Origin: an uncultured Oscillospiraceae bacterium
GTDB lineage: Bacteria > Bacillota > Clostridia > Oscillospirales > Oscillospiraceae
Length of the DNA: 64,000 nt
Reading direction: 5' to 3'
Assembly (NCBI GenBank): GCA_944387065.1
Contig: CALXDM010000007.1
Span: forward strand, 8,864-72,863
How positions within the stretch are numbered: position 1 is the stretch's first letter; the number at the start of each line of letters is the position of its first letter. Shown one piece after another: positions 39,074-62,476 of this stretch. The notes beneath the pieces were generated by a model, which had not been told where the DNA came from, did no database searches, and was given only the letters and a program-made list of their open reading frames with translations. The position numbers and the translations under genes were made by a program.

Positions 39074-39622
39074 TTAGGCCAGGGCCTTGCTGGATCGGTA
39101 GAGAAAGACCAGGAACAGCACTCCGCCTACGAGAGAGGCGATCGAGGTAACAAGCAAGACCGGGATCGCCAGCAGATTCAGCACCGGGATAAACATCAGA
39201 AGGTTGCAGGCCAAACTGATGACGGTGCACACCAGATTGATCATCCACACGGTGTGCCCCTGGCGCGCCAAATCGTTCCAGCCCAGACTTCCCACCAGCA
39301 GAGCGGTCGTAGAGCACACCAGATAGAGAATGACAAATCCCAGGATATTCGAAATGAGGTCAAACAGGTCCCCCATCCATGACTCTCCCCAGAAGCCGCC
39401 CAAGAAACTGACGATCAGGCTGATAATCCTCAGGGCAAACGCACCTGAATAGCCCTCATCATCCATCTTCGCTTGATACAATCCGATCAGATACACCACC
39501 TGGCCCACCAGCAGCAGGATGACTCCCACCAACAGCGGCGTGGTGAGCACACCCACAATCATCAAGATCTGGGCCAGGAACAGCTTGCCCAGTCCCCGGG
39601 CCGCTTCAGGATATCCACGCAT
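39074..39622 (-). CDS. Hypothetical polytopic membrane protein (paralog B)
   Basis: SD ggagg; several TM helices; motifs shared with adjacent paralog. Confidence 0.75.
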   Translation of the reverse strand: MRGYPEAARGLGKLFLAQILMIVGVLTTPLLVGVILLLVGQVVYLIGLYQAKMDDEGYSGAFALRIISLIVSFLGGFWGESWMGDLFDLISNILGFVILYLVCSTTALLVGSLGWNDLARQGHTVWMINLVCTVISLACNLLMFIPVLNLLAIPVLLVTSIASLVGGVLFLVFLYRSSKALA

Positions 39623-39640
39623 GACTTCAGTCCTCCCCAA

Positions 39641-40267
39641 TCAGAACCGTCCAGATTGTCCTCCTCCGCCATCCAGGGCAGTCGCCCCCTGGCCCAAGGC
39701 CTGGCTGGCCCGGTGGAGAAAGACCATGTACATCACCATACCCAGCAGCCCTGTCAGCAGGGTGAGGGCCGCCGCTGCCAGGATGGTCCTGGCCGGCAGC
39801 CCCTCCACCAGGAGCATCCCAGTCAGTGCCCCGGTGACGATGGTGCAGGCGATGTTCACCCCGCCGGTTCCTCGGCCAAAGCTAGTCAGCGTCCCCCGGC
39901 CCTCCAGCTTGACCGAGCGCGCTACCACCAGCAGAAGGATGGCCAGGTTGAGCAGGTTGAGCAGGTTGGACGCCACAGTGCTGACCAGGCGGGCGGGTTC
40001 CTCCTCCATCGCGCCCATGGCCAGGTTGACGGCCACAGTCCCAACCAAAGTGGCCACCGACAGGAGGAAGGCCACGCCATAATACCGGTCGTCCCGCCGG
40101 GCCTGATACAGCCCCATCAGATTGAGCACCAGCCCCGCCAGGGATGCCACACCCCCCAGTGTGGCATCCACCATGATCGAGATCAGTTGGGCCGCGGCGG
40201 AAAAAGCCTGCCCCAGCAGCACCTTATACAGCCCCTTGGCGGCTTCCGGATATGCCTTTATTCCCAT
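39641..40267 (-). CDS. Hypothetical polytopic membrane protein (paralog A)
   Basis: SD gggag; YPEAAKGL..., VFLHRASQAL; promoter TTGTCT-N17-TACACT at 40333-40361. Confidence 0.75.
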   Translation of the reverse strand: MGIKAYPEAAKGLYKVLLGQAFSAAAQLISIMVDATLGGVASLAGLVLNLMGLYQARRDDRYYGVAFLLSVATLVGTVAVNLAMGAMEEEPARLVSTVASNLLNLLNLAILLLVVARSVKLEGRGTLTSFGRGTGGVNIACTIVTGALTGMLLVEGLPARTILAAAALTLLTGLLGMVMYMVFLHRASQALGQGATALDGGGGQSGRF

Positions 40268-40370
40268 ACCCTCTCCCCCGTTAAACGCCTGGGCCGGCAT
40301 CCCACGGCAGGGCCGCCGGCCAGTTTTTCTTGAGTGTACCACATCCTGCTCTGGAAGACAAGCCCCCCGC

Positions 40371-40404
40371 AAAAGCCCCCCGGCCATTTCGGCCGGAGGG
40401 CTTT
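40371..40404 (-). terminator. Terminator of heme-uptake operon
   Basis: GC hairpin (ccggcc / ggccgg core, extended aaagccc / gggcttt) followed by T run on minus strand. Confidence 0.6.
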
Positions 40405-40455
40405 CGTTGCTACACAGCACTCCCCTGCTGCTGCATTGATTTGCAGCGGCTCAAT

Positions 40456-42282
40456 TCACACCGCCACGTTGTCCACAAAGCGCATCAGGATGACCGCCAG
40501 CTGGGCCCGGATGGCGCTGCCCTGGGGATTCACCTGGTTGTTGGACCCCTGGATCAGACCCGCGCCGTTGGCCCAGGACAGGGCGCCGGCAGACCAGCTG
40601 GACACGCTGCCCGCGTCGGCAAAGCCGGACAGGTCGCCGCTGGCCGTCACGTCATACCCAGCACCGTCCGCATAGCGGTACAGGATGGCCGCCAGCTGCT
40701 CCCGGGTGATGGTGTCCTCCGGGCCAAAGACCGTGTCACTATACCCGTTGACGATGCTGTTCTGGCTGGCCCACACCACCGCATCGGCGTACCAGCCAGC
40801 TGTGGCGTCGGTGAAGGGATTGTCCCCCGTTACCGCCGGGGAGCCCGCCAGACGGTACAGGATGGTCACCACCTGGGCCCGGGTGGTCGTCACGTCCGGG
40901 CCAAAGGTGGTCTCGCTGGTGCCCTGCATCAGCCCACGCTCGTAGACATAGGCCACCGCCTCATCGTAGTACGCGCCCTCGGCCACGTCGGTGAAGGGCG
41001 TGCTGCCCAACTCCGGTGTAGGATCAAGTGCAGGATCATCCTCCGTCCCCTGCTCCGGATCCTCAATGGGGTCGTCGCCGGGCTGTGGGGCTGGCGTGCC
41101 GGTGCCACCCGTGCCGCCGATGCTGCCGCCGGTCCCCTGCAGCGAGCTCCAGTCGATGGTCAGGGTGGCCGCATAGGGCGTGGACACCCCAGGTTGGTTG
41201 GACGAGCCGCTGCCGCTGCCGTCCCCAAACTGAACCCCCATCACGTTGCTGTTGACATACAGCCAGAGGTGATAGGTTTCACTCCCCGTACCCACGCTCA
41301 CCGGGAAGGTCATGCTGTCCACATAGCGCACCGATTCATTGGCCGGATTCAGCGCGGTATCCTCGCTGACGGTGTACGCCGCCTCCTGGACGCTCCCGCT
41401 CCCATCATAGTACCCGGGCGCGGAGTCTGTGGGATCCACAAAGGTGTCCACCGTGATGCTGTAAATGGTCACCTGCCCCGCCCCGAAGCGCAGGGTCAGC
41501 TGCGCGTTTCCAGACGCGTCCACCGTGACGCTTGCCCCCTGGTAGATGCCCTGCGCAAACTCGATCCCGCCCATGGCATTCACATAGAGCGAGAGACTGG
41601 AGCTTTCAATCTCATAGGTTCCCGCTCCCAGGTTAGCCTCCCCAGCGGCTCCGCCGGATTGGCTACCGCCGGCCCCCTGCACCGAATCCCAGTCAATGGT
41701 CAGGGTGGCCGCATAGGGCGTGGACACCCCAGGTTGGTTGGACGAGCCGCTGCCGCTGCCGTCCCCAAACTGAACCCCCATCACGTTGCTGTTGACATAC
41801 AGCCAGAGGTGATAGGTTTCACTCCCCGTACCCACGCTCACCGGGAAGGTCATGCTGTCCACATAGCGCACCGATTCATTGGCCGGATTCAGCGCGGTAT
41901 CCTCGCTGACGGTGTACGCCGCCTCCTGGACGCTCCCGCTCCCATCATAGTACCCGGGCGCGGAGTCTGTGGGATCCACAAAGGTGTCCACCGTGATGCT
42001 GTAAATGGTCACCTGCCCCGCCCCGAAGCGCAGGGTCAGCTGCGCGTTTCCAGACGCGTCCACCGTGACGCTTGCCCCCTGGTAGATGCCCTGCGCAAAC
42101 TCGATCCCGCCCATGGCGTTCACATAGAGCGAGAGACTGGAGCTTTCAATCTCATAGGTTCCCGCCCCCAGGTTTGGACTGCTTCCCGCTGCGGCAGACG
42201 CCACGGGGAGGGACAGCAGCATCACAGCCGCGAGGGCCAGGCTTATGACGCTCCGGAAGAGGTGCTGTTTCATGGTTTGCAT
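40456..42282 (-). CDS. Secreted surface protein: two identical novel ~160-aa domains plus three SLH domains
   Basis: Signal peptide; repeat LGAGTYE...YVNAMGG...NSNVMG...TIDW twice; SLH motifs TRAQ, TREQ, IRAQ. Confidence 0.9.
   Translation of the reverse strand: MQTMKQHLFRSVISLALAAVMLLSLPVASAAAGSSPNLGAGTYEIESSSLSLYVNAMGGIEFAQGIYQGASVTVDASGNAQLTLRFGAGQVTIYSITVDTFVDPTDSAPGYYDGSGSVQEAAYTVSEDTALNPANESVRYVDSMTFPVSVGTGSETYHLWLYVNSNVMGVQFGDGSGSGSSNQPGVSTPYAATLTIDWDSVQGAGGSQSGGAAGEANLGAGTYEIESSSLSLYVNAMGGIEFAQGIYQGASVTVDASGNAQLTLRFGAGQVTIYSITVDTFVDPTDSAPGYYDGSGSVQEAAYTVSEDTALNPANESVRYVDSMTFPVSVGTGSETYHLWLYVNSNVMGVQFGDGSGSGSSNQPGVSTPYAATLTIDWSSLQGTGGSIGGTGGTGTPAPQPGDDPIEDPEQGTEDDPALDPTPELGSTPFTDVAEGAYYDEAVAYVYERGLMQGTSETTFGPDVTTTRAQVVTILYRLAGSPAVTGDNPFTDATAGWYADAVVWASQNSIVNGYSDTVFGPEDTITREQLAAILYRYADGAGYDVTASGDLSGFADAGSVSSWSAGALSWANGAGLIQGSNNQVNPQGSAIRAQLAVILMRFVDNVAV
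41149..42174. repeat. Intragenic direct repeat, 486 bp x2, period 540 bp
   Basis: 41149-41634 vs 41689-42174 compared line by line: 3 mismatches, all synonymous. Confidence 0.97.
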
Positions 42283-42371: not shown

Positions 42372-43430
42372 TCAGCCATCCTCCCGGACGACGCGGATGG
42401 TAAACCAGGCCGTCCCGGTATAGCTGCCCACATTGGACGGGCTGCCCCCTAGCTGGATCACGCCAGTGAGCGTGTCCCCGCTGGCCTGGAGGACCTCCCC
42501 GGCCAGGGTGTTTGCAAAGGCGATCTCGTCCCCGCCGTTTCGCAGCGTCCCCTCTGGGCTGGCTGCCACGGCCATATGTGCCCCGGGCGGCAGGTCAAGG
42601 TCCCGGGCGGACACGGTGTAGGAAGCTGTCTCCACGGTGGAGGCCAGCCGGATCACGGCAGGGATCTCCACCAGGCCGGAGCCCCCAATGGGCCCTTCCT
42701 CCTCCCCATCGCTAGGCGCCTGGCCAGGGCTTCCGGTTGGCTGGGCGCCAGGCGTCTGCTGAGGGTCTGGCTCCGACGCTCCAGGGTCCGCGGCTCCCCC
42801 CTGCACCGAACCCCAGTCAACGCTCAGGGTGGCCGCGTAGGAGGTGAGCTGCCCAGGGCTGTTGGACCCGGCGGAGCCGCCCCCACTGCCGAACTGGCAG
42901 CCCATCACGTTGCTGTTGACATACAGCCAGAGGTGGTAGGTGGCCGTCCCCGTGCCCACGCTCACCGGGAAGGTCATGCTGTCCACATAGCGCACCGCCG
43001 CCCCGTTGTTGTCCAGCGCGGTATTCCCGCTGAGGGTATAGGAGGCGGTCTGGACCACCCCCTGCGGGTCATAGTACCCAGGCGGGACGGTGTACTGCAC
43101 GCCGTCCACGGTAGGGGTGGCGTGGATGAAGGTGTCCACCGTGATGCTGTAAATGGTCACCTGACCCGCCCCGAAGCGCAGGGTCAGCTGCGCGTTTCCA
43201 GACCCGTCCACCGTGACGCTCGCCCCCCGGTAGATGCCGTTGGCAAACTGGATGCCCCCCATGGCATTGACGTAGAGCGAGAGGCTGGAGCTGCCGATCT
43301 CATAGCTGCCCGCCCCCAGCGCAGTCCTCCCAGAGGCGCGCGCCGGAGGCAAGCAGGCAGCCAGCAGCACCGCCGCAGCCAGCAGCCAACCCGCAAACCC
43401 CGTGCACCGGCATCTTCTCATGTTTCCCAT
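42372..43430 (-). CDS. Secreted protein: novel domain plus WxL-like C-terminal domain
   Basis: Signal peptide (possible lipobox LAAC); third copy of the domain; Pro/Gly linker; tail GSYTGTAWFTI. Confidence 0.8.
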   Translation of the reverse strand: MGNMRRCRCTGFAGWLLAAAVLLAACLPPARASGRTALGAGSYEIGSSSLSLYVNAMGGIQFANGIYRGASVTVDGSGNAQLTLRFGAGQVTIYSITVDTFIHATPTVDGVQYTVPPGYYDPQGVVQTASYTLSGNTALDNNGAAVRYVDSMTFPVSVGTGTATYHLWLYVNSNVMGCQFGSGGGSAGSNSPGQLTSYAATLSVDWGSVQGGAADPGASEPDPQQTPGAQPTGSPGQAPSDGEEEGPIGGSGLVEIPAVIRLASTVETASYTVSARDLDLPPGAHMAVAASPEGTLRNGGDEIAFANTLAGEVLQASGDTLTGVIQLGGSPSNVGSYTGTAWFTIRVVREDG

Positions 43431-43505: not shown

Positions 43506-43979
43506 TCATGGCTGCACCACCAGTTCAAATTGGACCTGGGCGCCGTTGAGCGCGGCAAGATCCGCCATGGAAAAGGCGCTGTAGTGGATCGTCGCGTCAT
43601 AGCTCCCTGCCGGGAGGGGGCCGGACAGCTCCACTTCATATAGGCTCTGCCCCGGCTCCAGATAATCCGACTCATAGATCGTCTCCCCGCTCTCATCCAG
43701 CGTAACGCGCAGGACGAAGTAGCACCCATTCCCCTCCGGATTGTAAAAATGGGTGGGCACCGTCGTCTCCCCGGCGGGGATGGTCCAGGTGTCAAATCTG
43801 GGGATCTCGATCCCCTCGCTGCCCAGGCTGGCTGCCGGCGCCTGGCTCTGGCCCGGTTCCAGCTGGACTTCCGGCGCCAGGAACACCCGATACCCAAAGC
43901 CCGCGAAGAGCAGCAGGCACAGCAGCGCCGTGCCCCCGGCCACGATCAACCCATACCCTACCATCATCTTTTTACCCAT
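43506..43979 (-). CDS. Membrane-anchored beta-rich protein of unknown function
   Basis: ATG 43979 overlapping ATPase stop; N-terminal TM; FYNPEGNGCYF, YESDYLEPG, GSYDA, NGAQV. Confidence 0.75.
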   Translation of the reverse strand: MGKKMMVGYGLIVAGGTALLCLLLFAGFGYRVFLAPEVQLEPGQSQAPAASLGSEGIEIPRFDTWTIPAGETTVPTHFYNPEGNGCYFVLRVTLDESGETIYESDYLEPGQSLYEVELSGPLPAGSYDATIHYSAFSMADLAALNGAQVQFELVVQP

Positions 43980-44772
43980 AGTCTCCCCCTTGTCGGCGAA
44001 ACAGGCAGTGCTTGCGCCCTGCCACCGTGATGATTTCAGACGCCACCCCAAACGCCTGGCTGAGCACCGGCGCCTGAACCACCCGTCCGATCTCCCCCTG
44101 GGCCATGACCACCCCATCCTTCAGGATGACCACCTCGTCACAATAGGCGAAGGCCTGGTTGATATCGTGCAGAACCATCAGGATGGTCATCCGCTTCTTC
44201 CGGTTGAGTTCAGCGATGAGATGCAACATCTCCAGCTGATAGTGAATGTCCAAATAGGTGGTGACCTCGTCCAAGAGCAGGATGTCCGCCTGCTGGGCCA
44301 ACGCCATGGCCAGCCAAACCCGTTGGAGCTGGCCGCCGGAGAGCGCGGAGATGGGCCGGTGGGCAAACTGGACGGTGTCGGTATCGGCCATGGCCTGCCG
44401 CACGGCTGCTTCATCCCCCTCATCCAGGGGTCTGAGCAGCCCCCGGTGGGGGGTCCTGCCGGCGCAGACCAGTTTTTCCACCGTCAGGTCGCCGGGCGCC
44501 GCGTTGCTCTGGTGGACCACCGCGATCCGCCGGGCGATGGCCGGCCGCTTCATCGTCCCCAGCTCCCGCCCATCCAGCAATACCTGGCCGCTGTCCGGTT
44601 TGAGGATGCCCGCCAGCAGGTTGAGCAGGGTGGACTTTCCGCACCCGTTGGCCCCGATCAGCGCCGTGATCCTCCCCGGGGCAAACCGGGCGGACACCCC
44701 GCGCAGCACCAGCTTGCCCCGCTCATAGGCGTAGCACAGATCTGTGACTGCCAAGCCGTTTCTATCGTCCAT
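43972..44772 (-). CDS. Heme/iron ABC ATPase
   Basis: GANGCGKST, LSGGQLQR, LLDEVTTYLD, VLHDIN. Confidence 0.92.
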   Translation of the reverse strand: MDDRNGLAVTDLCYAYERGKLVLRGVSARFAPGRITALIGANGCGKSTLLNLLAGILKPDSGQVLLDGRELGTMKRPAIARRIAVVHQSNAAPGDLTVEKLVCAGRTPHRGLLRPLDEGDEAAVRQAMADTDTVQFAHRPISALSGGQLQRVWLAMALAQQADILLLDEVTTYLDIHYQLEMLHLIAELNRKKRMTILMVLHDINQAFAYCDEVVILKDGVVMAQGEIGRVVQAPVLSQAFGVASEIITVAGRKHCLFRRQGGDYG

Positions 44773-45757
44773 AGACCGTGCCACTCCTTTTCAGCAGAAT
44801 CACCAGCATGGGCCCGCCCAGGATCGCCATGATGATCGCCGCGCTGATCTCATAGGGATAGGCGATGGCCCTGCCCAGGGTGTCGGCCAGCAGGAACACC
44901 AGCGCTCCCAACAGGGCGGCATAGGGGAGCAACTTCCGGTGGTCGCTGCCCACCAGCAGCCTGGCCATGTGGGGTACGATCAGACCCAGGAAGCTGACCG
45001 ATCCGATGACGGCGGCAAAGCCGGATGCCATAAGCACCGAGAGCAGGGAGATCAAAAGCCTGGTCCGGTGCAGGTTGACGCCCAGGCTCAGGATGGTCTT
45101 GTCGGAAAAGGCCAGGAGGTTGCACCGCTGCGCCGCGAGCCAGCACAGGGCCAGGGCGGCCACGGCATAGACCAGCAGGACGGACACATCATCCCACGTC
45201 TTGAGCGAGATGTTGGCGTTGATCACGCTGGCCGCCCCCGTGTAGGTGGAGCCGGTGAAGGCGTCAAACGCCTGGTACAGGCCGGTGAAGAAGGCGTCCA
45301 CCGCGATGCCGGTCAGGATCAGCCGGACGGGGCTGAGCTGCTTGTTCCAGGCCAGCAGATACACCAGGGCGAAGCCCACCATCCCCCCCGCAAAGGAGAA
45401 CAGCGGGGTGAACCGCGCCAGGGCGGGGAGCAGGGCGGTCACCATCGCCGCGGCAAAGGCCGCCCCCGAGGTGACGCCGATGAGACCGGGATCGGCCAGG
45501 GGGTTTCGCATCACCGCCTGCATACACACCCCCGACAGGGCCATGATCCCACCGCCCAGCATGGCGACCAGGATCCGGGGAAAGCGCAGCTGGAGGATGA
45601 TGGCCACCGTCTCGTCATACGCCACAAACAGCCCCCGCAGCAGCTGCGGCACCGTCGTGGAAAGCCCACCGGTGTTGACCGCGGCAAAGAAGGCCGCCAG
45701 CAGCGCCGCCGCCGTGAGGGTGAAGGCCAGCGCGGTCCGGGCCCCATTCCTCCTCAT
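44762..45757 (-). CDS. isdF: Heme ABC permease (IsdF/FecCD-like)
   Basis: LRFPRILV, QAVMRNPLADPGLIGV, FLGLIVPH, GPMLVILL. Confidence 0.88.
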   Translation of the reverse strand: MRRNGARTALAFTLTAAALLAAFFAAVNTGGLSTTVPQLLRGLFVAYDETVAIILQLRFPRILVAMLGGGIMALSGVCMQAVMRNPLADPGLIGVTSGAAFAAAMVTALLPALARFTPLFSFAGGMVGFALVYLLAWNKQLSPVRLILTGIAVDAFFTGLYQAFDAFTGSTYTGAASVINANISLKTWDDVSVLLVYAVAALALCWLAAQRCNLLAFSDKTILSLGVNLHRTRLLISLLSVLMASGFAAVIGSVSFLGLIVPHMARLLVGSDHRKLLPYAALLGALVFLLADTLGRAIAYPYEISAAIIMAILGGPMLVILLKRSGTVYGR

Positions 45758-46659
45758 CCCTGCCCCTCCCCAAGGATGGGAGCGAGGTACTCCAGGGCCT
45801 GGATCCAGTCCAAGCTGGCGCTCATCCTGAAGTACTCAGAGGGCAGGTAGGACACGTTCCCCGCCCGCACAGCCGCAAAATGCTGCCAGGTCTCGTTCTG
45901 AGCAAACTCGCTTTGCATGTACTGGAAGGCGTCCTCCTGGGCATAGTGGGCAAACACCAGGATATGGTCCGGATCCCTTTGGATCAGATCCTCGGGATTG
46001 ATGTTGGCAAATCCATTCTCATCCCCCCGGTACTGCGCACCGTAAACATTGTTCCCCCCTGCCAGTTTGACCAAGTTGCCCACATAGGAATTCTCCGTGG
46101 CCACCAGGTAAAAACCGTCCGGGAAGGCCATCAGCAGCAGCACGTCCACCCCCTCCGATCCCTGACTCTGATGGCGCTGTAGGCTGCTCTCATAGTCCCG
46201 GTTCAGCCGGGCCGCCTCGTCCTGGCAGCCCAGATACTCCCCCAGGGAGGTGATGGCCGCATACATTCCCTCCACGCTGCTCAGGTCCAGGAACGCAGAG
46301 GTGATGCCCGCCGCCTGGTATCCCTCCGCCAGGCTCGCCTCCAGGGTCTGGGGAGAAAGCACCAGATCCGGGTCCAGGCTCTTGATGATCTCCAGGTCCG
46401 GGTTCATGGGCGCGCCCACCGTCTCCACCCCTTGGTAGCGCCCTGGCAGCGCGTTTTCCGTCTCGGGGACGCCGATCACCTGTTCATAGCCCAGCTCGTC
46501 CAGAATCTCACAGATCGCCACCGAGGTGGACACCACCGTCCGCTCCCCCATCACGTCCGCTCCGTCCTCCGGCGCATTCTGTCGAGCAGAGGCACAGCTC
46601 ACCAGCAGGAGCAAGCAGGTGCTCACCGCCGCCAGCCAGCTTCGTCTTCTCCTGTTCAT
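45754..46659 (-). CDS. isdE: Heme-binding lipoprotein (IsdE-like)
   Basis: Lipobox LVSC; VGAPMNPDLE, YLVATENSYVGNLVKLAGG, FAHY; closely follows recalled S. aureus IsdE motifs. Confidence 0.85.
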   Translation of the reverse strand: MNRRRRSWLAAVSTCLLLLVSCASARQNAPEDGADVMGERTVVSTSVAICEILDELGYEQVIGVPETENALPGRYQGVETVGAPMNPDLEIIKSLDPDLVLSPQTLEASLAEGYQAAGITSAFLDLSSVEGMYAAITSLGEYLGCQDEAARLNRDYESSLQRHQSQGSEGVDVLLLMAFPDGFYLVATENSYVGNLVKLAGGNNVYGAQYRGDENGFANINPEDLIQRDPDHILVFAHYAQEDAFQYMQSEFAQNETWQHFAAVRAGNVSYLPSEYFRMSASLDWIQALEYLAPILGEGQG

Positions 46660-47519
46660 ACCCTTCTCCCCCGTCTCCCGATCATCACAAGAACCACCCC
46701 CAGGATCACCAGCACGCCCGCGGCCCCGCCCACGGCCAACAGCACCGGCACCCTGATAAACGCGTGGTAGGTATCGCCTGTCCCCTGACCCGCCGTGCCG
46801 CCCGATCCTTCCCCCGCATCAGCATTGTAGATATTCAGGCCGTCCAGGCGCTCCAGATCCCCGCCGTCTGCTTGGGCCGCTTCCGACGGCTCGGCCTCCT
46901 CCTCGATGGGAGTAGCGGAGAGGGAGGCCCAGTCCACCGTCAAATTGGCCGGGTACCGATCCGCCGTGAACTGGGTGCCCATGACATTGCTGTTGATGTA
47001 GAGCGTCAGGCCATATGTATCCCGCTCCTCCTGGACGGGGAAGGTGATGGAGTCCACATAGTGGACCTGCTCCTGGCGCGCGTTCTCGGCGGTGTCGTCG
47101 CTCAGGGTATAGCGCACCCCCTCGGTCACCAAGGTACCGTCAGCCTCGTAATAGCCGATGGTACCGCTGCGCACCCCATCGGTGTCCGTCACATAGCTGG
47201 GGGACGCATCCAGGAAGGTGTCGCAGGTGATGCCGTAAATGGTAACTTGGCTTTTGGTGAAGTACAGGGTGAGGGAGCGGCCCCCGGTCTCGTCCACCTC
47301 CACCTGGGCCATGGTCAAAAGGGGTGTGCCAAACTCCACACCCCCCATGGCGTTTACATAGCAGGAGAGCTCTGCCTGCACATAGTAGCTGCCCGCAGGC
47401 AAGCCACTGGCCCCGTGGGCGGTGGGTACCGCCGTCCCCAAGCAGACTGCCGCCAGGGCCGCGGCCCCCAGAAGGAGCCGTTTCCATCTGCTGCTGCACG
47501 TCCGACTGCTGCGCGACAT
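46656..47519 (-). CDS. Secreted protein: diverged copy of the novel domain plus C-terminal TM anchor and basic tail
   Basis: Signal peptide; YVNAMGG, QVTIY, YVDSITFPV, NSNVMG, VDW; hydrophobic helix then GRRGRRV; SD aggagg. Confidence 0.85.
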   Translation of the reverse strand: MSRSSRTCSSRWKRLLLGAAALAAVCLGTAVPTAHGASGLPAGSYYVQAELSCYVNAMGGVEFGTPLLTMAQVEVDETGGRSLTLYFTKSQVTIYGITCDTFLDASPSYVTDTDGVRSGTIGYYEADGTLVTEGVRYTLSDDTAENARQEQVHYVDSITFPVQEERDTYGLTLYINSNVMGTQFTADRYPANLTVDWASLSATPIEEEAEPSEAAQADGGDLERLDGLNIYNADAGEGSGGTAGQGTGDTYHAFIRVPVLLAVGGAAGVLVILGVVLVMIGRRGRRV

Positions 47520-47618: not shown

Positions 47619-47634
47619 GTTAGCTATTGCTAAC
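47619..47634. promoter_or_regulatory. Operator palindrome in heme operon leader
   Basis: GTTAGC-tatt-GCTAAC, perfect 6-bp arms. Confidence 0.7.
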
Positions 47635-47789: not shown

Positions 47790-47833
47790 GTTAGCTTATG
47801 CTAACAATAGCACATCCAGTCCTTGCCTGTCAA
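47790..47833 (-). promoter_or_regulatory. Heme operon promoter with overlapping operator
   Basis: TTGACA(47828-33)-N18-TATTGT(47804-09) with TG; GTTAGC-ttat-GCTAAC at 47790-47805 overlaps -10 and start site. Confidence 0.7.
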
Positions 47834-47916
47834 TCCCAATCCAGGAGAAATTTTTGAATTGTATCTGGGTGGGCCGGCTGCTGCCAGAAAGCGAATGATT
47901 CGAAGGGGCACTTTGC

Positions 47917-47951
47917 GAAAAAAGAGGGACCGGCCTTTGCCGGTCCCTCTT
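47917..47951 (-). terminator. Terminator after tuf
   Basis: 13-bp stem aagagggaccggc / gccggtccctctt with T run on minus strand. Confidence 0.8.
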
Positions 47952-54194: not shown

Positions 54195-54540
54195 GGGGGC
54201 GTACTGGTTTCGACGGGGGTAGGGAAACGGGAATAGCGAGCGGATGCGCCCAGCATCCTAAAAATGGGCAACTATAAATTAAAGAACGACGATAACGTAG
54301 TTCTCGCCGCGGCTTAACGCGGCCGTCCTGCCCGGAAGGACCACGAGCCGGGTCTGGGCGTGAAATGAGTGGTGAACGTGCGTATGGAAAGAGTTGACCG
54401 TACCACGCATGATGACTCTACCAATCCCCTGAGTGTGGCGGCCCACGCTTGGGTGCGGGAATGTAATGGACCGCCTGCGCTCGGAGAAGTTCCCGTGGAT
54501 CTGCTTTCGGACAGGGGTTCGACTCCCCTCGCCTCCACCA
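54195..54540 (+). ncRNA. ssrA: tmRNA
   Basis: 5' GGGGGCG pairs with 3' CGCCUCC-ACCA including G3-U; GGUUCGACUCCC T-arm; tag ORF ending NDDNVVLAAA-TAA at 54317. Confidence 0.97.
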
Positions 54541-54595: not shown

Positions 54596-54778
54596 GCCTG
54601 AAAGCCCTGATTTCAAGGACTTTCGGGTCTTTTATCGACCCCAGCTGCCGCCAGACAAAGCGATAGCCTGCCGCCGACCCCGTCCGCAAAGACGCTGGGT
54701 AGCAGCAGGCTATCGTTTATTTTATGGGTATCGTTTCATTTGTGAGCTATCGTTTAATTGTTAATCCAGGAAATTTTC

Positions 54779-55846
54779 TTAATTGGAAGCCGTTAGGTGA
54801 AAATGTTCCTCGGCAATCCCATTCAGTTGGGCGGCGATCTCGGAAAAATCCCGGTTCAGATCCAGGGTTCGAACGCTGATCTGGTTGCCGCTCATCTGGT
54901 AGCGGTTATTTGGCTGAACGGCTTCATCTGTTGCCGCATAGAGCAGCATCCCTGAAACCGTATGCGGCTTGTCCCCAAATTCCGCATCCTTATTCTTGAC
55001 GTAGGTAAAAATCTGATACAAATTGCTGGAGTGGATCGTGTGGACATCGTACTGGGCTTGTGTGGTATGGGTGTAGTACTTGGCGTCAATGATCAGCACC
55101 TTGCTGCCTTTTGTGAGCATGATATCGCTCTGCATGACCGGCAACATTGTCCCGATGCCGTCATCCAAGGCCCAGGGAATCTGTGAAGCCGTTGCTGTCA
55201 CCTGTGGACATTCCTTCACATAGTATTCGAGAATGAATTTCTCATACAGACGGTTCATGCGCTGCTCATCGACAAAGGAAGCCAGCTTGTATTCTCCGGA
55301 ATCTGTTGTCAAAAGCATCCCTTCCAGAATGAACTGGCATAAGCTGATAAGCATACGATAGGTATTGTTGTTTCTCTGAAACCGAATAGCTGACCAGCGG
55401 ATCGTAGAGGGATCGATTGTGTCAACATTTGAGAAGAACAACATTTCTTTCTTCAGATCGCTTTTGTATTCCTGATCCACTCTCGCGTGCCGGAGTAGAA
55501 GCATAACAGTCGTTTTGAGTATCTGATTCAAGAGATTGTTTTCAGAAAGCTCATCGTACTCGCAGGTCAGCACCCGCTTTCTGGCAAGGCGGTTCTGAAT
55601 GGTCCCCGGCATGTCGATCTTGCCCCGGACTACAGCAACATCCTCTTTCCGGTTCAAATACTCCCGGTATAGGCCCTGCTTCAACTGTCTGCTGATTCCC
55701 TTAGCCAGAATCGCAGCGAAGAGGTTATGCATGTTCTCGAACTCTTCAGTAGCAACATCCTCATAACCGCCTTGATTCAGCGTCGTGAAGGCATACGAAA
55801 GCATATAGTATACGTTTTTTATGAAGATGCTCTTGTCCTTAATCAT
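54779..55846 (-). CDS. mcrC: McrC-type nuclease subunit
   Basis: NVYYMLSYAF, MNRLYEKFI, QSDIML..., IIDAKYY, NLYQIFTY; 4-bp overlap with mcrB. Confidence 0.93.
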   Translation of the reverse strand: MIKDKSIFIKNVYYMLSYAFTTLNQGGYEDVATEEFENMHNLFAAILAKGISRQLKQGLYREYLNRKEDVAVVRGKIDMPGTIQNRLARKRVLTCEYDELSENNLLNQILKTTVMLLLRHARVDQEYKSDLKKEMLFFSNVDTIDPSTIRWSAIRFQRNNNTYRMLISLCQFILEGMLLTTDSGEYKLASFVDEQRMNRLYEKFILEYYVKECPQVTATASQIPWALDDGIGTMLPVMQSDIMLTKGSKVLIIDAKYYTHTTQAQYDVHTIHSSNLYQIFTYVKNKDAEFGDKPHTVSGMLLYAATDEAVQPNNRYQMSGNQISVRTLDLNRDFSEIAAQLNGIAEEHFHLTASN

Positions 55847-58239
55847 TGAAACACACCTTGCAAAATGTTTTCCCAACGCTGGAGTTTGTTGGTGTCGTCG
55901 AACCAATATTCGCTGAGCATCGGAAGAATGTCGTAGTCAACAATGGAGTGTAGCCACTCATCGGTGCAAACATCTCTACCGCAAAAATAGCTGTGGCCGA
56001 TGCAGAAGCCCTTACCCAGCGACTTATCAAGGGAAATCTCACGATTCAGGTCTTTCACCTTGTTAATGAGTTCATTTAGTGTCTCGTTGTTCAGACTGTT
56101 CTGGTACTGAATGAATCCCTCGGAATCAAAGCCCGGTTCCACTTCAAAGAAGCTGAAACGGCGACGGAGTGCATAGTCGATCATGGCGAGACTACGGTCT
56201 GCTGTGTTCATCATGCCGATGATGTAGAGGTTCTTCGGAACGGAAAATGAGAGTCCATTATAGGCGAGAGTCACTTTTGTGCCTCTATAGTCTTTTTCAA
56301 TCAGCATCAACAACTCACCGAAGATCTTACTCATGTTGCCACGGTTAATTTCGTCGATGATGAAGAAGAACTCCTTGTCAGGCTGGTTTGCGGCCTTCTG
56401 ACAGAAGCGATAGAAAATACCGTATTTTAGCTCAAAACCATCCTCTACCGGTTTATATCCCATCATGAAGTCTTCGTAGGAATAGTTCTGGTGGAACTGA
56501 ACGAACTCGATACGGCTGTCGTCCTTTTCGCCCATCATGGACCACGCCAGCCGTCTTGCGGCGAACGTTTTACCGACACCGGGTGCCCCCTGTAGGATGA
56601 TATTCTTCTTGTTGCGAAGGACGGCTACGAGGTTCTCATAGCGTTTTTCGGTCATATACACTTCATCGAGGAAGTCGCTTTTTGTGTAAGCGTCAATAGA
56701 AGCCTCTGGAACAACCGGATTCTCCTCTCGGATCAGATCAAGAATGAAGTCATATTCGCCTCTGGTGAGCTTGAACAGACTACCCTGTGCATTCTGAAAA
56801 AACTCCATCCGCTCCAATTCGGGACACTCTTTTAACGCCGCATAGTCAATCGGCGTGGGCAATCCTTCCACTTTCTCAAAGAACAGTTTCTCTCCATCCT
56901 GTTCTGCGCTGATACGCCCAAGGGCAACAATTTGCTTGACCGGATTGGATTCGTACCCAATGATCATGTCACCGGCCTTCGCATCAAGAAAGTTCTGGAA
57001 AATACGGCGTTTGTTGCCGTTCTCATTGTAAAGAGTATAGGACTGAACCTCGCCCACGGCAATGTCGGAAAAGCTCCAAATCTTCGGATTGGCGGTGAGC
57101 CACCAATAGCCGCGGTCTTGTTCACCAGGAGCCGCAGCAACATACAGTTCGATCCCGCTGAGATCTGTTTGATCAAGAGCCGCTGAAAGCTCGTCTCGCA
57201 GTTTCCAGACAAAGCTACCATCCTCATCTTTACCAGCGTCACGACCTGTATAGAGGATGGTCCACCACTGTGTAGATCCATCTTCCCGGACGGCTGGCGT
57301 GATGCCCGTAGCTTCGCAGATCCTCCTGGCAAGCGCAACGGACCCGGAATTATAGAAGTTTTTTGTCTCACCATATTTCACCGCAAGCTGTGTGCAGGAA
57401 GCCATACCACCATAATCCTTTATGCGCTTCATGATTTCAAGGGCTCCGGTAGTAAAGACAGATTCATCCTTCAGAAGTTTCAACCAGTCCTCAACAGAAA
57501 GGCCTGGGTCGTAATTTGAACCATACCATTCTGTAGTCACAGCAGCGAAAGCATCTTTCTGAGAGTAATACCGGCTGATGTAAAAACCGACATCGACTGT
57601 CAGCGTCTTCAGTTCCGGGTCGGGATAGCAGGTGTCAGTCAACTGCGATTGGAACAGGTTCACCAATTCCGTATCTTCTTTCAGCGCCGCACTGATTTCA
57701 TCGTACAGTTTTAAGAAATTGCGGATATTATCAGCATATGCACCCTTCTTAAAATGATAATCCGCCTCCAGTTCACTGGCGACCGTTTTTACCTCGCCAA
57801 ATTTATAGATATAGTATTTGTCCGGAAATCGAAGCCACAAGTATGTGCTGATGGCATTTTCATATTGATAGTGTTGCGCTGCCCCGTTCCCATACTTCTC
57901 CAGGAGAACTGTAGATTGCATTTTGAACGCATTCATTCGTTCGTACACATCTTTGCTTTCGTCGTACAAAGATAAAAACATGGCGCGCACTTCTTCTGGG
58001 GCAGATTTTGCAAAACCAATAATCATGCCTTTCGGGAAATTGTTAGCAGAAGCTAGCAGATTATAGGTCTTGTCCAAAGAGCGGTCCAGCATTTCTGCAA
58101 AGTCTGAAGCATTTACATCCCAATTATCTTGGAACCACTTGACTGCTTCCCACTTATATTTTTCTTCACCCCATTGCTTGGAAACAAAATTCTGCTTGTA
58201 TTGAGCAAGTACGTCTTTTAAGCGAAAACGGTCAATCAT
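55843..58239 (-). CDS. mcrB: McrB-type AAA+ GTPase with extended N-terminus and EVE-like domain
   Basis: GAPGVGKT, VQFHQNYSYEDF, IIDEINRGN, MNTADRS, YALRRRF; YWWLTANPKIWS...LFKLT EVE-like segment. Confidence 0.9.
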   Translation of the reverse strand: MIDRFRLKDVLAQYKQNFVSKQWGEEKYKWEAVKWFQDNWDVNASDFAEMLDRSLDKTYNLLASANNFPKGMIIGFAKSAPEEVRAMFLSLYDESKDVYERMNAFKMQSTVLLEKYGNGAAQHYQYENAISTYLWLRFPDKYYIYKFGEVKTVASELEADYHFKKGAYADNIRNFLKLYDEISAALKEDTELVNLFQSQLTDTCYPDPELKTLTVDVGFYISRYYSQKDAFAAVTTEWYGSNYDPGLSVEDWLKLLKDESVFTTGALEIMKRIKDYGGMASCTQLAVKYGETKNFYNSGSVALARRICEATGITPAVREDGSTQWWTILYTGRDAGKDEDGSFVWKLRDELSAALDQTDLSGIELYVAAAPGEQDRGYWWLTANPKIWSFSDIAVGEVQSYTLYNENGNKRRIFQNFLDAKAGDMIIGYESNPVKQIVALGRISAEQDGEKLFFEKVEGLPTPIDYAALKECPELERMEFFQNAQGSLFKLTRGEYDFILDLIREENPVVPEASIDAYTKSDFLDEVYMTEKRYENLVAVLRNKKNIILQGAPGVGKTFAARRLAWSMMGEKDDSRIEFVQFHQNYSYEDFMMGYKPVEDGFELKYGIFYRFCQKAANQPDKEFFFIIDEINRGNMSKIFGELLMLIEKDYRGTKVTLAYNGLSFSVPKNLYIIGMMNTADRSLAMIDYALRRRFSFFEVEPGFDSEGFIQYQNSLNNETLNELINKVKDLNREISLDKSLGKGFCIGHSYFCGRDVCTDEWLHSIVDYDILPMLSEYWFDDTNKLQRWENILQGVFQ

Positions 58240-58250
58240 ATTCTCACCCC

Positions 58251-61217
58251 TTATGCATTGCGCAAACTCTTGTAGATTTCTTCCGCAAAGATCCCCAGCA
58301 CTTGCCGTTTCATATCATCGTTGGAAAGCAGCATGGAGAAAAAATCCTGGTTTTGTGACAGCCCTTCGATCAGCGCATCATCAATATCGTCAAAGTAAGA
58401 AAACTCGAAGTCCTTCTGGGTATTGTTTTTTGCACTGGTCTTAAGCCGCTCTGACTTCATCAGGATATCACGAATCTGGAGCATGGCTTTGACAACCACA
58501 TCATTATCATAAGATTTTCCGGTACGGCTGTTGATCTCATCAATGATCTCTGACAGCCGCTGCTCCTTGTCTTCTGTAAGGCCAAAGTGCTCCGCCGTTG
58601 GTAATTTCGTCACCGGCTTTGCCACCAGGTTTGGAGAAAGGTGCTCCTCACCCTTCTTCTGAATAAAGTTGGACGCTTTAATTTTACCGTCAAGGTTAAA
58701 ACCAGCACCGGGATGCTTGATATTGATGTACGCCAGCAAGTAAGCGATAAAGTTATACTTCTTGTGCAGTTCCGTATCCTCAAAGCAAGACACCTGCAAC
58801 AGGAATTCGTAGTAGCGAACAAAACTGCGCATAGCGGCAACTGCCTCGCGCTGCTCCTCATATTCGTAATGGTCCAGCAGCTTCTTGCTTTTTTGCAGGA
58901 AAAATGTAAGGCGCTGCTTCTGCTTGCCAGTTACTTTATCGGAATATAGGATCTCGTTTGCACTTTCAATGTCGGCAGGATCGAGTATGGCATAGGCATC
59001 GATCTTGGCCTCCAGATCATAAATGGCGCTTGGTGTCACGGAATTTGACAGAAGCGTAGTTGTGTAATAAGGTGCAAACGCTGCTTTCATATCCTCGTAG
59101 CTGTTCACAAAATCCAAAACAAACGTCTTTTTGTCGTAAGGTGGACAGATACGGTTCAAGCGGGAAAGCGTTTGAACCGCATTTACACCTCGCAGCTTTT
59201 TCAGGACATACATGGCGCAGAGCTTTGGCTGGTCAAATCCCGTCTGATACTTATTGGCTACAAGAAGCACCTGGTAAGCATCAGTATCAAACTCTTTTGT
59301 CAGCCTGTCCTCAGGAAAGCCATTGATGGAGGCTTCGGTGTATTCCGTCTCATCGTCCGGCAGTTTCACCTTGCCGGAAAAGGCCACCAGAGCATGGATA
59401 CCCTCATATCCCTTCTTTGTGATGTAATCCTCAAAAGCCTGACGATATTTCACCGCAGCCTGTCGAGAAGCCGTGATGACCATTGCTTTGGCCTGTCCGC
59501 CCAGTTCGTTCATGACGGTAGTGCGAAAATGCTCTACAATGACTTCAATCCGCTGCGAGATGTTGGTATCATGCAATTCTACAAATCGAGCGATCTGCCG
59601 CTTGGCGGCGTTGGTTTTACAGCGGGGATCATCTTCGATTTCCTTGTTGATTTGATAAAAAGTCGAGTATTCCGTGTAGTTTTGCAGCACATCCAGAATA
59701 AACCCCTCTTCAATGGCCTGTTTCATGGAGTAGACATGAAATGCTTCACGCTGCCCTTTGGTATTCAGTCGGCCAAAGAGTTGGATGGTGGTGGGCTTTG
59801 GCGTAGCGGTAAAGGCAAAAATGGACACATTGGCCTGCTTGCCGTTGCGCCGGATCTCATCGGAGATCATGTCCTCCACATCCCCCTCCACCTGTTCACC
59901 GGAGCCAAGGGACATAGTCACCGCAGCCATATCCTTACCGGCGGTGGAAGAGTGGGCTTCATCAATGATTACAGCGAACCGCTTGTTTTTCAGGCCCTTT
60001 ACGCTGTCCACAATATACGGGAACTTTTGGATGGTGGTAGCGATGATCTTCGTGTTGCCATTAAGGGCAATGGCTAGATCCGCCGAGTTACACTTATCGT
60101 CCATGACACGGATGAGGCCAGCTTTGTGCTCCATCCCCACGATGGCCTTCTGGAGCTGGCGGTCCACCACCACGCGGTCGGTTACAATGATGATGTTGTC
60201 AAAAATGATCTTGTTGTCCGCATCGTGCAGCGAACTCAGACGATGCGCCAGCCATGCAATGGAGTTGGTTTTGCCAGAACCGGCGCTGTGCTGAATCAAA
60301 TAGTTCTGCGCGGTACGGTTTACCCGGACATCCGCGAGAAGTTTGCGGATCACATCCAGCTGGTGGTAGCGAGGGAAAATGAGATTTTCAGACCGTTTCA
60401 CCTTGCTGGTCTGGTCATCGACCTTTTCCTTTACCTCAACAAAAATGAACTTGCTGATCAGGTCCAGGATGGTATCCTTCGTCAGAATATCCTCCCACAT
60501 ATAGGACACGCTGTATTTGTCCGGAAAGGTAGGATTTCCCGCACCAGCGGTTACCCCCTCGCCGTTGCCCATATTGAAGGGCAGGAAAAAGGTGGCATCC
60601 CTGGCCAATTTGGTGGTCATATAGACCTCTTCCAGATCCATGGCGAAGTTGACAAGGCAGCCGGCCTTGAAGAGAAACAGACGGGTCTTGGGATTGCGCT
60701 CGGTGCGGTACTGGTAAATGGCGTCCTGATAGGACTGTCCAGCGGTGTTGCACTTGAGCTCAAAGGAGATGATGGCAAGGCCGTTCAGGAATATTACCAC
60801 ATCAATGCGCTCTTTGTCGCTGGCCCAGACCTCCTCCATGACCGAGAAGATATTCTGGCTGTATTTCTTCGTCAGATCCGGGTTGAAGGTGGTGGCGGGC
60901 TTGGTGTACATCAGCTCCAGCTTTTGGTTGGAAATCTCAATGCCGTGCTTCAGCACATCAATCAGGCTGCCGCGGGTTTTGGTGGTTTCCGTGTTGATAA
61001 AGCTGACGATGGTATCTTCCAAGTCATCCTTATAGATTTTTCGCAGGTAGTCCATGGTGTCCGGCTGGGTGCCGTTCAGAAACTGAAACAGCATTTCCCG
61101 GTCCATGGCGAAGGAGCGGTCAAAATGAGCAGCCTTGCGAATGACATAGCCGTTGTCTTTTTCCAAGCGCTCTAAGAGGAAGTTTTGGTAATCCTTTTCC
61201 GATAACACATGATTCAT
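58251..61217 (-). CDS. hsdR: Type I restriction subunit R
   Basis: RIDVVIFLNG..FELK nuclease motif, HSAGSGKT, IDEAH, FTATP, YQTGFDQP, QTLSRLNR. Confidence 0.95.
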   Translation of the reverse strand: MNHVLSEKDYQNFLLERLEKDNGYVIRKAAHFDRSFAMDREMLFQFLNGTQPDTMDYLRKIYKDDLEDTIVSFINTETTKTRGSLIDVLKHGIEISNQKLELMYTKPATTFNPDLTKKYSQNIFSVMEEVWASDKERIDVVIFLNGLAIISFELKCNTAGQSYQDAIYQYRTERNPKTRLFLFKAGCLVNFAMDLEEVYMTTKLARDATFFLPFNMGNGEGVTAGAGNPTFPDKYSVSYMWEDILTKDTILDLISKFIFVEVKEKVDDQTSKVKRSENLIFPRYHQLDVIRKLLADVRVNRTAQNYLIQHSAGSGKTNSIAWLAHRLSSLHDADNKIIFDNIIIVTDRVVVDRQLQKAIVGMEHKAGLIRVMDDKCNSADLAIALNGNTKIIATTIQKFPYIVDSVKGLKNKRFAVIIDEAHSSTAGKDMAAVTMSLGSGEQVEGDVEDMISDEIRRNGKQANVSIFAFTATPKPTTIQLFGRLNTKGQREAFHVYSMKQAIEEGFILDVLQNYTEYSTFYQINKEIEDDPRCKTNAAKRQIARFVELHDTNISQRIEVIVEHFRTTVMNELGGQAKAMVITASRQAAVKYRQAFEDYITKKGYEGIHALVAFSGKVKLPDDETEYTEASINGFPEDRLTKEFDTDAYQVLLVANKYQTGFDQPKLCAMYVLKKLRGVNAVQTLSRLNRICPPYDKKTFVLDFVNSYEDMKAAFAPYYTTTLLSNSVTPSAIYDLEAKIDAYAILDPADIESANEILYSDKVTGKQKQRLTFFLQKSKKLLDHYEYEEQREAVAAMRSFVRYYEFLLQVSCFEDTELHKKYNFIAYLLAYINIKHPGAGFNLDGKIKASNFIQKKGEEHLSPNLVAKPVTKLPTAEHFGLTEDKEQRLSEIIDEINSRTGKSYDNDVVVKAMLQIRDILMKSERLKTSAKNNTQKDFEFSYFDDIDDALIEGLSQNQDFFSMLLSNDDMKRQVLGIFAEEIYKSLRNA

Positions 61218-62464: not shown

Positions 62465-62476
62465 ACCATCACCGCC

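Follow-up and report, generated by a model that had tools for sequence, protein, structure and literature searches.

A divergent NEAT-like surface domain with a conserved methionine pair in a putative heme uptake locus of an uncultured Oscillospiraceae bacterium

The window analysed here, a stretch of 64,000 nucleotides from an uncultured Oscillospiraceae bacterium (assembly GCA_944387065.1, contig CALXDM010000007.1, positions 8,864 to 72,863 of the forward strand), encodes a cluster of minus-strand genes in which three surface proteins carry between them four copies of one domain, with the window proteins giving no Pfam or NCBIfam match to this domain at E ≤ 1, and no PDB match by phmmer or hmmsearch. 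Judged from predicted structure, the domain is best described as a NEAT-type heme domain of an uncatalogued and highly divergent variety, and we consider it probable that it serves as a NEAT-like surface heme receptor or relay module. That the domain binds heme is likewise likely, a view drawn from its fold and its genomic context.

One copy lies in a 352-residue protein (42372..43430; domain residues 37-214, 42789-43322), and is the copy that the initial annotation had located at 42780-43320. A second lies in a 287-residue protein (46656..47519; domain residues 39-205, 46905-47405), and two stand in tandem in a 608-residue protein (40456..42282; copy A, 41665-42174; copy B, 41125-41634) bearing S-layer homology (SLH) repeats, all on the minus strand. 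The four copies align with a mean column identity of 76%, and each of the eight motifs quoted in the initial annotation was found exactly once in every copy by regular expression. Also confirmed are its statements that no histidine is invariant, with His never occurring at a common position of the four copies, and that the NEAT motif YxxxY is missing, with Y...Y absent from all four. Two methionines are retained throughout, one in the motif NAMGG and one in NVMG, and the distance of 111 residues noted earlier for the SLH copy is true of both SLH copies, rising to 119 residues in the 352-residue protein and 122 in the 287-residue protein. The corresponding codons are 43260-43262 and 42903-42905 in the 352-residue protein (where a conserved tyrosine, Tyr162, is encoded at 42837-42839), 47346-47348 (the first, or lip, Met) and 46980-46982 in the 287-residue protein, and 42112-42114, 41779-41781, 41572-41574, and 41239-41241 in the SLH protein. 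Copies A and B of the SLH protein are 98% identical as protein and 94–98% identical as DNA, with a period of 540 nt, and are the product of a very recent tandem duplication. As these two are nearly the same sequence, the number of informative paralogues is three rather than four, and little weight attaches to residues being invariant among so few. The neighbouring gene's copy shares 73–88% DNA identity with those of the SLH protein, with the DNA identities among the copies suggesting ongoing duplication or gene conversion inside the locus.

AlphaFold2 models of the domain were obtained for the 352-residue protein (predicted local distance difference test, pLDDT, 94.4; predicted TM-score, pTM, 0.89) and the 287-residue protein (pLDDT 90.1, pTM 0.87), and the suggestion of the initial annotation that the domain is a divergent beta-sandwich related to the NEAT/Shp fold agrees with both, NEAT and Shp being the best PDB folds in Foldseek searches. 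For the 352-residue protein, NEAT and Shp domains lead the matches (IsdH-N1, E = 0.02, probability 0.99; Shp, E = 0.02; Hbp2-N2, TM-score 0.56 over the NEAT length), at E-values that are weak, and for the 287-residue protein the 21 best matches are all NEAT or Shp domains, headed by the NEAT domain of IsdA (E = 9.1e-4, probability 1.00, TM-score 0.58–0.61 over the NEAT length), with Shp at rank 5 and TM-scores of 0.42–0.48 over the query length among these matches. The HtaA-CR fold, also put forward for comparison, is absent from the top 50 PDB matches of either model, as are the HmuY and HasA folds and any further hemophore fold.

The heme pocket of NEAT domains is built from a 3-10 helical lip after strand 1 and from strands beta7 and beta8 (PMC7815599). 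In the model of the 287-residue protein, DSSP assigns a short helix exactly at the residues Asn-Ala-Met that follow the first strand, and the second Met falls, in either model, in a tight turn before the last strands, with Y162 opening the last strand (positions such as M21, M140, and Y162 are given in the domain numbering of the 352-residue protein). By the order of secondary-structure elements, M21 is predicted to stand on the lip and M140 in the beta7/beta8 loop, the two parts of the NEAT heme pocket. In an alignment of 19 sequences of the family, the invariant residues are M21, G42, F65, G82, Y83, Y84, S98, Y129, L131, S137, M140, G141, Q143, Y162, and W170, and among 140 near-complete domains, taken from representatives clustered at 50% identity, M21 (97%) and M140 (94%) are top-conserved together with L14, G22, F26, G141, Q143, and F144. 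Y162 is conserved in 86% of these domains, with Leu as the fourth residue after it in 84%, and no conserved His column is present. Substitutions at the two Met positions include the ligand-competent His, which replaces M21 in one member and M140 in one member, and Y162 is replaced by His in eight domains (of seven proteins), by Met in two, and elsewhere by Leu, Arg, Phe, or Ala. M140 is therefore more constrained than Y162 as the candidate partner of M21. An apparent loss of M140 with a compensating Met162 in two members was rejected, as the Met is kept there with a shift of one residue in alignment register. Provided that heme is bound, the chances of Met/Met rather than Met/Tyr ligation seem to us about even.

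The fold matches also include NEAT domains that bind hemoproteins, and the domain could on that account bind a heme-carrying host or dietary protein such as haemoglobin or myoglobin, as the NEAT domains at the N-termini of IsdB and IsdH do, with its methionines being structural or part of a protein-binding lip. IsdH-N1 is the best Foldseek match of the 352-residue protein's model, both models also place IsdB-N1 and IsdH-N1/N2 high among their matches, and haemoglobin-binding NEAT domains likewise lack the S/YxxxY motif (PMC7815599). However, the Met pair is kept in all four copies, which belong to three differently anchored proteins and include the membrane-proximal one beside the binding protein, where only heme transfer is sensible, the haemoglobin-binding lip motif (F/Y)YH(Y/F) is absent, its place being taken by NAMGG, heme-binding IsdA and IsdB-N2 are the best matches of the 287-residue protein's model by TM-score, and His is among the residues that substitute for Met at the two positions. 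We regard a hemoprotein-binding domain as improbable.

A role of the domain in heme uptake is further suggested by its neighbours. The cluster includes the gene of a 301-residue substrate-binding protein of the Peripla_BP_2 family (45754..46659, minus strand), whose PDB sequence matches include Lmo2184 of Listeria (5joq, 1.3e-51) and IsdE of S. aureus (2q8p, 4.2e-41). The alignment columns of IsdE Met78 and His229, the heme ligands of IsdE, hold Met and His (M85 and H238) in this protein, with a chain offset of 29 fitting both. A genome scan with one genome per species yielded 49 loci, in 33 of which an IsdE-like binding protein adjoins the domain gene, nearly always together with a FecCD permease and an ATPase, and both ligand positions are kept in 33 of the 33 binding proteins. 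Ten loci are from spirochaetes, where the domain gene adjoins a TonB-dependent receptor and a 342-residue protein in nine, with ExbB/ExbD present in seven of these loci and TonB in six, and an IsdE-like importer or a TonB-dependent receptor is linked to the domain in 42 of the 49 loci. Since the IsdE-like binding protein retains its ligands, the spirochaete receptor is nearest, though below cut-off, to heme and hemoglobin receptors, and no cobalamin riboswitch was found in the window, heme is the most likely cargo, as the initial annotation had proposed for the ligand, and a corrinoid is the main alternative.

Several observations weigh against reading the domain as a heme-binding relative of NEAT, beginning with the sequence comparisons. 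The models PF05031 and PF11545 match none of the window proteins at E ≤ 1, and none of 134 family members over the domain at E ≤ 0.1, and the S/YxxxY heme motif of NEAT domains is lacking. Comparison of the family by hhalign with Shp, as a single sequence or as a six-sequence alignment and in local or global mode, gave probabilities of at most ~1% (E = 0.056–0.077), and comparison with a three-sequence NEAT profile (PDB-verified IsdC, 4h8p, and 3sik) gave a probability of 0.5% (E = 0.11) with an alignment that is colinear and non-significant. The Shp domain sequence was verified against PDB entry 2q7a and carries its ligand methionines, Met66 and Met153 (PMC2266757), in GQGM and VEPMG, with the extended hhalign alignments not pairing the ligand methionines. 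The resemblance to the eye of GQGM to NAMGG and of VEPMG to NVMG is without statistical support and is not counted as evidence here. With the profile comparisons non-significant, the family stands outside Pfam NEAT and HemeBinding_Shp by sequence, and its relation to NEAT and Shp, as the models present it, is at the level of fold and context. The structural agreement is itself modest, with TM-scores of 0.29–0.48 over the query length and at most 0.61 over the NEAT length, and root-mean-square deviations of 6–8 Å, which puts the predicted similarity to the NEAT beta-sandwich at the border of "same fold". The domain moreover exceeds a NEAT domain by ~50 residues and has an insertion that follows the fourth strand, as well as a Gly-rich loop of variable make-up behind the second Met, and both methionines are assigned to the pocket solely by element order. 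Among the neighbours, the binding protein scores 270.6 bits with the NCBIfam IsdE model TIGR03659, below its cut-off of 298.65, and is by NCBI's rule not an equivalog, no heme-degrading enzyme was recognised among the neighbour genes examined, and members of the family are named only "hypothetical protein", "lipoprotein", or "InlB B-repeat-containing protein". The Treponema receptor scores best with TonB-hemin (158 bits) and second-best with the BtuB-type family TonB-B12 (135 bits), both under their cut-offs.

A possible bridge in sequence space was sought in one SLH-anchored member of 1433 residues (P0137), which contains an FMN_bind domain (residues 195-276), the new domain (455-616), and InlB B-repeats, and in which residues 951-1061 give a sub-threshold match to Pfam NEAT (E = 0.008) with a lip of SMGDVAF, compared with AMGGVEF in the new family. 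This protein may represent an intermediate between the new family and NEAT, a suggestion that is without statistical support. As a bridge it was rejected, which adds to the points above: the hhalign alignment is colinear but has a probability of at most ~1%, and a homologue search with the NEAT-like region was empty.

The closeness of the two receptor scores, with BtuB chains among the receptor's best PDB sequence matches, bears on the possibility that the domain has the same fold and surface location but takes up another tetrapyrrole, either a corrinoid or a breakdown product of chlorophyll or porphyrin, capturing it on behalf of an importer like BtuFCD or a receptor like BtuB. The FecCD, ABC (ATP-binding cassette), and Peripla_BP_2 families serve B12 as well, the hosts are anaerobes of the gut and rumen, where corrinoids are contested, and chlorophyll uptake has been proposed for NEAT domains of soil bacteria (PMC7815599). 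Cobalamin is nevertheless an unlikely cargo, with the riboswitch missing from the window and the binding protein IsdE-like rather than BtuF-like, its BtuF score being 26 bits and the IsdE ligands being kept in all 33 of the related loci. Furthermore, a conserved pair of thioethers is easier to reconcile with iron that has a free axial position than with a corrin, which brings its own lower ligand. Uptake of another tetrapyrrole is in our view unlikely.

A third possibility is that the domain is a generic surface beta-sandwich, namely an adhesin, an S-layer module, or a Met-rich binder of Cu(I) or another metal, which stands near an iron-type transporter by chance. Beta-sandwiches are common in surface proteins, no sequence family gives the domain a function, and Met pairs bind Cu(I) in other proteins. 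Against chance, the linkage to an importer or TonB-dependent receptor is found across phyla and envelope types, Firmicutes and Treponema have an operator-like palindrome in common (described below), and the folds that the models match are those of NEAT and Shp domains that bind heme, not those of adhesins or copper proteins. This makes a generic sandwich highly improbable.

Taking the domain as a NEAT-like heme module, a relay can be proposed for the window. All three domain proteins have a signal peptide and an anchor (SLH, a transmembrane helix, or a possible lipobox), and no sortase or LPXTG signal is present in them. The term "hemophore" used in the initial annotation is therefore imprecise: the NEAT-like heme role is retained, a secreted hemophore is not, and the anchored proteins look like a tethered receptor and relay. 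The SLH protein with its two copies would be the outermost tier and capture heme at the cell surface, the 352-residue protein, which has one copy and is probably a lipoprotein or secreted, would form the middle tier, and the 287-residue protein with one copy, anchored in the membrane, would be the innermost, membrane-proximal tier. Heme would then be relayed towards the membrane from one domain to the next, reach the Met/His binding protein, and enter the cell by an IsdE/IsdF-type ABC importer, following the relay logic of the Isd and Shr/Shp/Hts systems (PMC7815599, PMC3359286). Within each domain, a cleft of NEAT type would receive the heme, bordered on one side by the lip that follows strand 1 and on the other by the beta7/beta8 hairpin, with the lip Met of NAMGG as one axial ligand and the Met of NSNVMG as the likelier second, the Tyr that starts the last strand being the alternative. 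Neutral thioethers would suit both ferrous and ferric heme, which would fit obligate anaerobes.

Bis-Met ligation is plausible by analogy, having precedents in Shp and Shr of S. pyogenes, with Shr NEAT1 using Met390/Met475 and NEAT2 using Met997/Met1107, 110 residues apart (PMC12796733, 2025), and the authors of the Shr study note that Met, being neutral, is able to hold heme as Fe(II) and as Fe(III) alike (PMC12796733). The new domain shares with Shp and with NEAT1 and NEAT2 of Shr a NEAT-class beta-sandwich, Shp being matched by both models, as well as the surface anchor, a gene next to an IsdE/HtsA-type heme ABC importer, the lack of YxxxY, and the predicted placing of one Met behind the initial strands and the other close to the final hairpin, at a spacing of 111–122 residues here compared with 110 in Shr NEAT2. 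It differs from them in having no detectable sequence similarity, in being 15–50 residues longer, in its own motifs (LSCYVNAMGGxEF, GYY, YVxSxTFP, NSNVMGxQF, and DW), and in its hosts, which are commensal anaerobes and spirochaetes rather than streptococci; the Met ligation is moreover one that we infer. The Isd system's own NEAT domains (IsdA, IsdB-N2, IsdC, and IsdH-N3) are the best structural matches, and the two systems have in common an IsdE-like importer surrounded by several copies with different anchors, which suggests a relay towards the membrane, and a pocket of lip helix and beta7/beta8, where the conserved methionines of the new domain are predicted to lie. In contrast to the Isd domains, the new domain is without S/YxxxY, Tyr is not its first-rank ligand candidate, and its anchors are SLH, transmembrane, or lipobox.

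In the spirochaetes, the domain makes up the C-terminal portion of lipoproteins whose genes stand beside that of the TonB-dependent receptor, and would act as a surface heme-capture lipoprotein. This coupling of lipoproteins to a TonB-dependent receptor is the most unexpected feature of the family, and sets it apart from NEAT, which the cited review treats within Firmicutes only (PMC7815599), in that the new family also occurs in diderms. A functional analogy for the spirochaete members is offered by Tfo, the HmuY homologue of the oral anaerobe Tannerella forsythia, a surface lipoprotein by a TonB-dependent receptor for which a Met pair is proposed as ligands and which prefers Fe(II) heme under reducing conditions, T. 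denticola being reported to have no HmuY homologue (PMC6200708). The folds of HmuY and the new domain are unrelated, with neither HmuY nor Tfo structures in the 50 best Foldseek matches, and there is no sequence relation. The conserved 342-residue protein, of no known family, always lies between the receptor and domain genes (e.g. L001 6867-7895), and the Treponema homologues have an extra N-terminal domain of ~135 residues ahead of the NEAT-like one (L001 8001-8405). A link to the hemin-binding proteins HbpA/HbpB of Treponema denticola was dropped, as no member is so named.

The extent of the family was assessed by a word-seeded search of 5.8 billion proteins, which returned 21 relatives, and by a profile search that covered 1.84 billion representatives exhaustively and returned 190 clusters at E ≤ 1e-3, 118 of them at E ≤ 1e-30. 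A Pfam scan of 134 members gave no family across the domain in any of them; three members match Pfam Calycin_like. The domains and signals that co-occur with it in the family are those of surface anchors (Flg_new, LPXTG, SLH, dockerin, and LRR), together with lipoprotein signals. No paper on the family was found in the literature, nor a family model or name. Of the genome loci, the closest is that of Candidatus Enterenecus merdae, at 94% identity, with the others belonging to Oscillospiraceae, Lachnospiraceae, Ruminococcus, and Eubacterium of the gut and rumen, to Selenomonadaceae, Erysipelotrichaceae, and Acholeplasmatales with a single locus each, and to Treponema/Spirochaetaceae with the ten loci described above.

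In the window, the seven densely packed minus-strand genes form one cluster 3' of a terminator-like hairpin of tuf and a sigma-70-like promoter. The first gene encodes the 287-residue protein, which has a signal peptide, its one domain copy, and a C-terminal transmembrane anchor with a basic tail. Beyond the binding protein gene lie those of a FecCD-family ABC permease of 331 residues (44762..45757, minus strand; Pfam FecCD, 2.9e-76) and an ABC ATPase of 270 residues (43972..44784, minus strand; Pfam ABC_tran, 7.3e-33) of the iron/heme/B12 type II importer class, whose top NCBIfam families are the FecE, heme, and corrinoid ATPases, every one under cut-off. Directly after the ATPase gene, a conserved 157-residue protein with an N-terminal transmembrane helix and no known family is encoded at 43506..43979 (minus strand), and this gene and the importer genes thus sit between the domain genes of the 287-residue and 352-residue proteins. 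The 352-residue protein has a signal peptide, a possible lipobox (LAAC), and, after its domain copy, a conserved C-terminal domain of ~120 residues (42375-42740, minus strand) without Pfam, NCBIfam, or PDB match. The SLH protein has a signal peptide and, following its tandem copies, three SLH repeats (~40459-40998; Pfam SLH, 1.9e-31).

Synteny among the 49 loci includes the 157-residue transmembrane protein in 25, which covers most of the Firmicute loci, and the C-terminal ~120-residue domain in 24, with relatives of both mostly at 29–60% identity and at 79–90% in the near-identical Ca. Enterenecus locus. A PDB sequence search gave no match for the 157-residue protein or the 342-residue Treponema neighbour, and Pfam and NCBIfam likewise assign the former to no family. 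Directly upstream of the domain gene, many of the Firmicute loci have genes for DUF454 (a small membrane protein like YbaN), a regulator of the AraC type, DUF3793, and flavodoxin (L003 84-3059, L035 4545-7821, L011, L012, L024, L045, and L047), and DUF454 is found in six spirochaete loci (L014, L017, L025, L032, L037, and L041); the domain genes of the window itself have no such neighbour. It is speculation that the pair of DUF3793 and flavodoxin is part of an anaerobic heme-processing step.

The promoter-like site consists of TTGACA, a spacer of 18 nt, and TG-TATTGT (47804..47833, minus strand; 10 of 12 matches, with an extended -10), and lies downstream of the tuf hairpin (~47915-47945). An operator-like palindrome, GTTAGC-N4-GCTAAC, abuts the -10 element (47790..47805), and a second copy is found ~100 nt upstream of the first start codon (47619..47634), giving two copies upstream of the operon of an 18-bp form, A-GTTAGC-N4-GCTAAC-T, in which N4 is AT-rich. 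The window holds these two exact copies and one with a single mismatch, compared with 0.07 expected from shuffling when up to one mismatch is allowed. The exact core occurs in 18 of 54 related loci (L026 4780-4795, L040 12980-12995, and 16 others), two Treponema loci among them, mostly 100–250 bp upstream of the domain gene in Firmicutes, and before the TonB-dependent receptor or exbB in Treponema. The half-sites resemble the DtxR/IdeR iron box (TTAGGTTAGGCTAACCTAA), with spacing that is 5 bp wider.

Further along the window, directly 3' of the SLH protein gene, two adjacent paralogous multi-transmembrane proteins of 188 residues (39074-39640, minus strand) and 259 residues (39641-40420, minus strand) are encoded, with N-termini that are alike (…YPEAA(K/R)GL…) and no Pfam family for either. 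A tmRNA gene lies at 54195-54540 (plus strand; Rfam, 146 bits), and beyond it (54600-64000) the G+C content falls from ~0.62 to 0.47–0.51. The genes of this low-GC stretch include those of type I restriction-modification (HsdR-like, 58251-61217; N6_Mtase, 62477-63985) and of an McrB-like protein with EVE and AAA_5 domains (55843-58239), and the stretch looks like a defence island inserted at ssrA.

NEAT relays have been presented as a device of Firmicutes, studied mostly in pathogens, with tyrosine as the heme ligand (PMC7815599), and Met ligation in NEAT-type domains is so far found only in proteins of S. pyogenes. Tentatively, and with somewhat less than even confidence, we suggest that the family may be an ancient branch of the NEAT superfamily with bis-Met ligation that crosses envelope types, working, tethered to wall or membrane, with an IsdE-type importer in monoderm gut Clostridia and, fused to lipoproteins, with a TonB-dependent receptor in diderm spirochaetes, the set perhaps being under one shared operator, AGTTAGC-N4-GCTAACT, and forming a relay adapted to ferrous heme in anoxic habitats. 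If the family binds heme, the NEAT architecture would be far wider and more divergent than profile searches reveal, a new family model would be justified, and ~190 clusters of "hypothetical protein" could be annotated. Redox-selective heme transfer could additionally be studied on the natural variants, bis-Met or Met/Tyr, that the family would offer. For the organisms concerned, the family would provide a candidate heme-uptake route in gut and rumen Clostridia, Negativicutes, and Treponema, with NEAT-type heme capture for Treponema, reported to lack HmuY, and for many commensal anaerobes, and would bear on the ecology of iron and heme in the gut.

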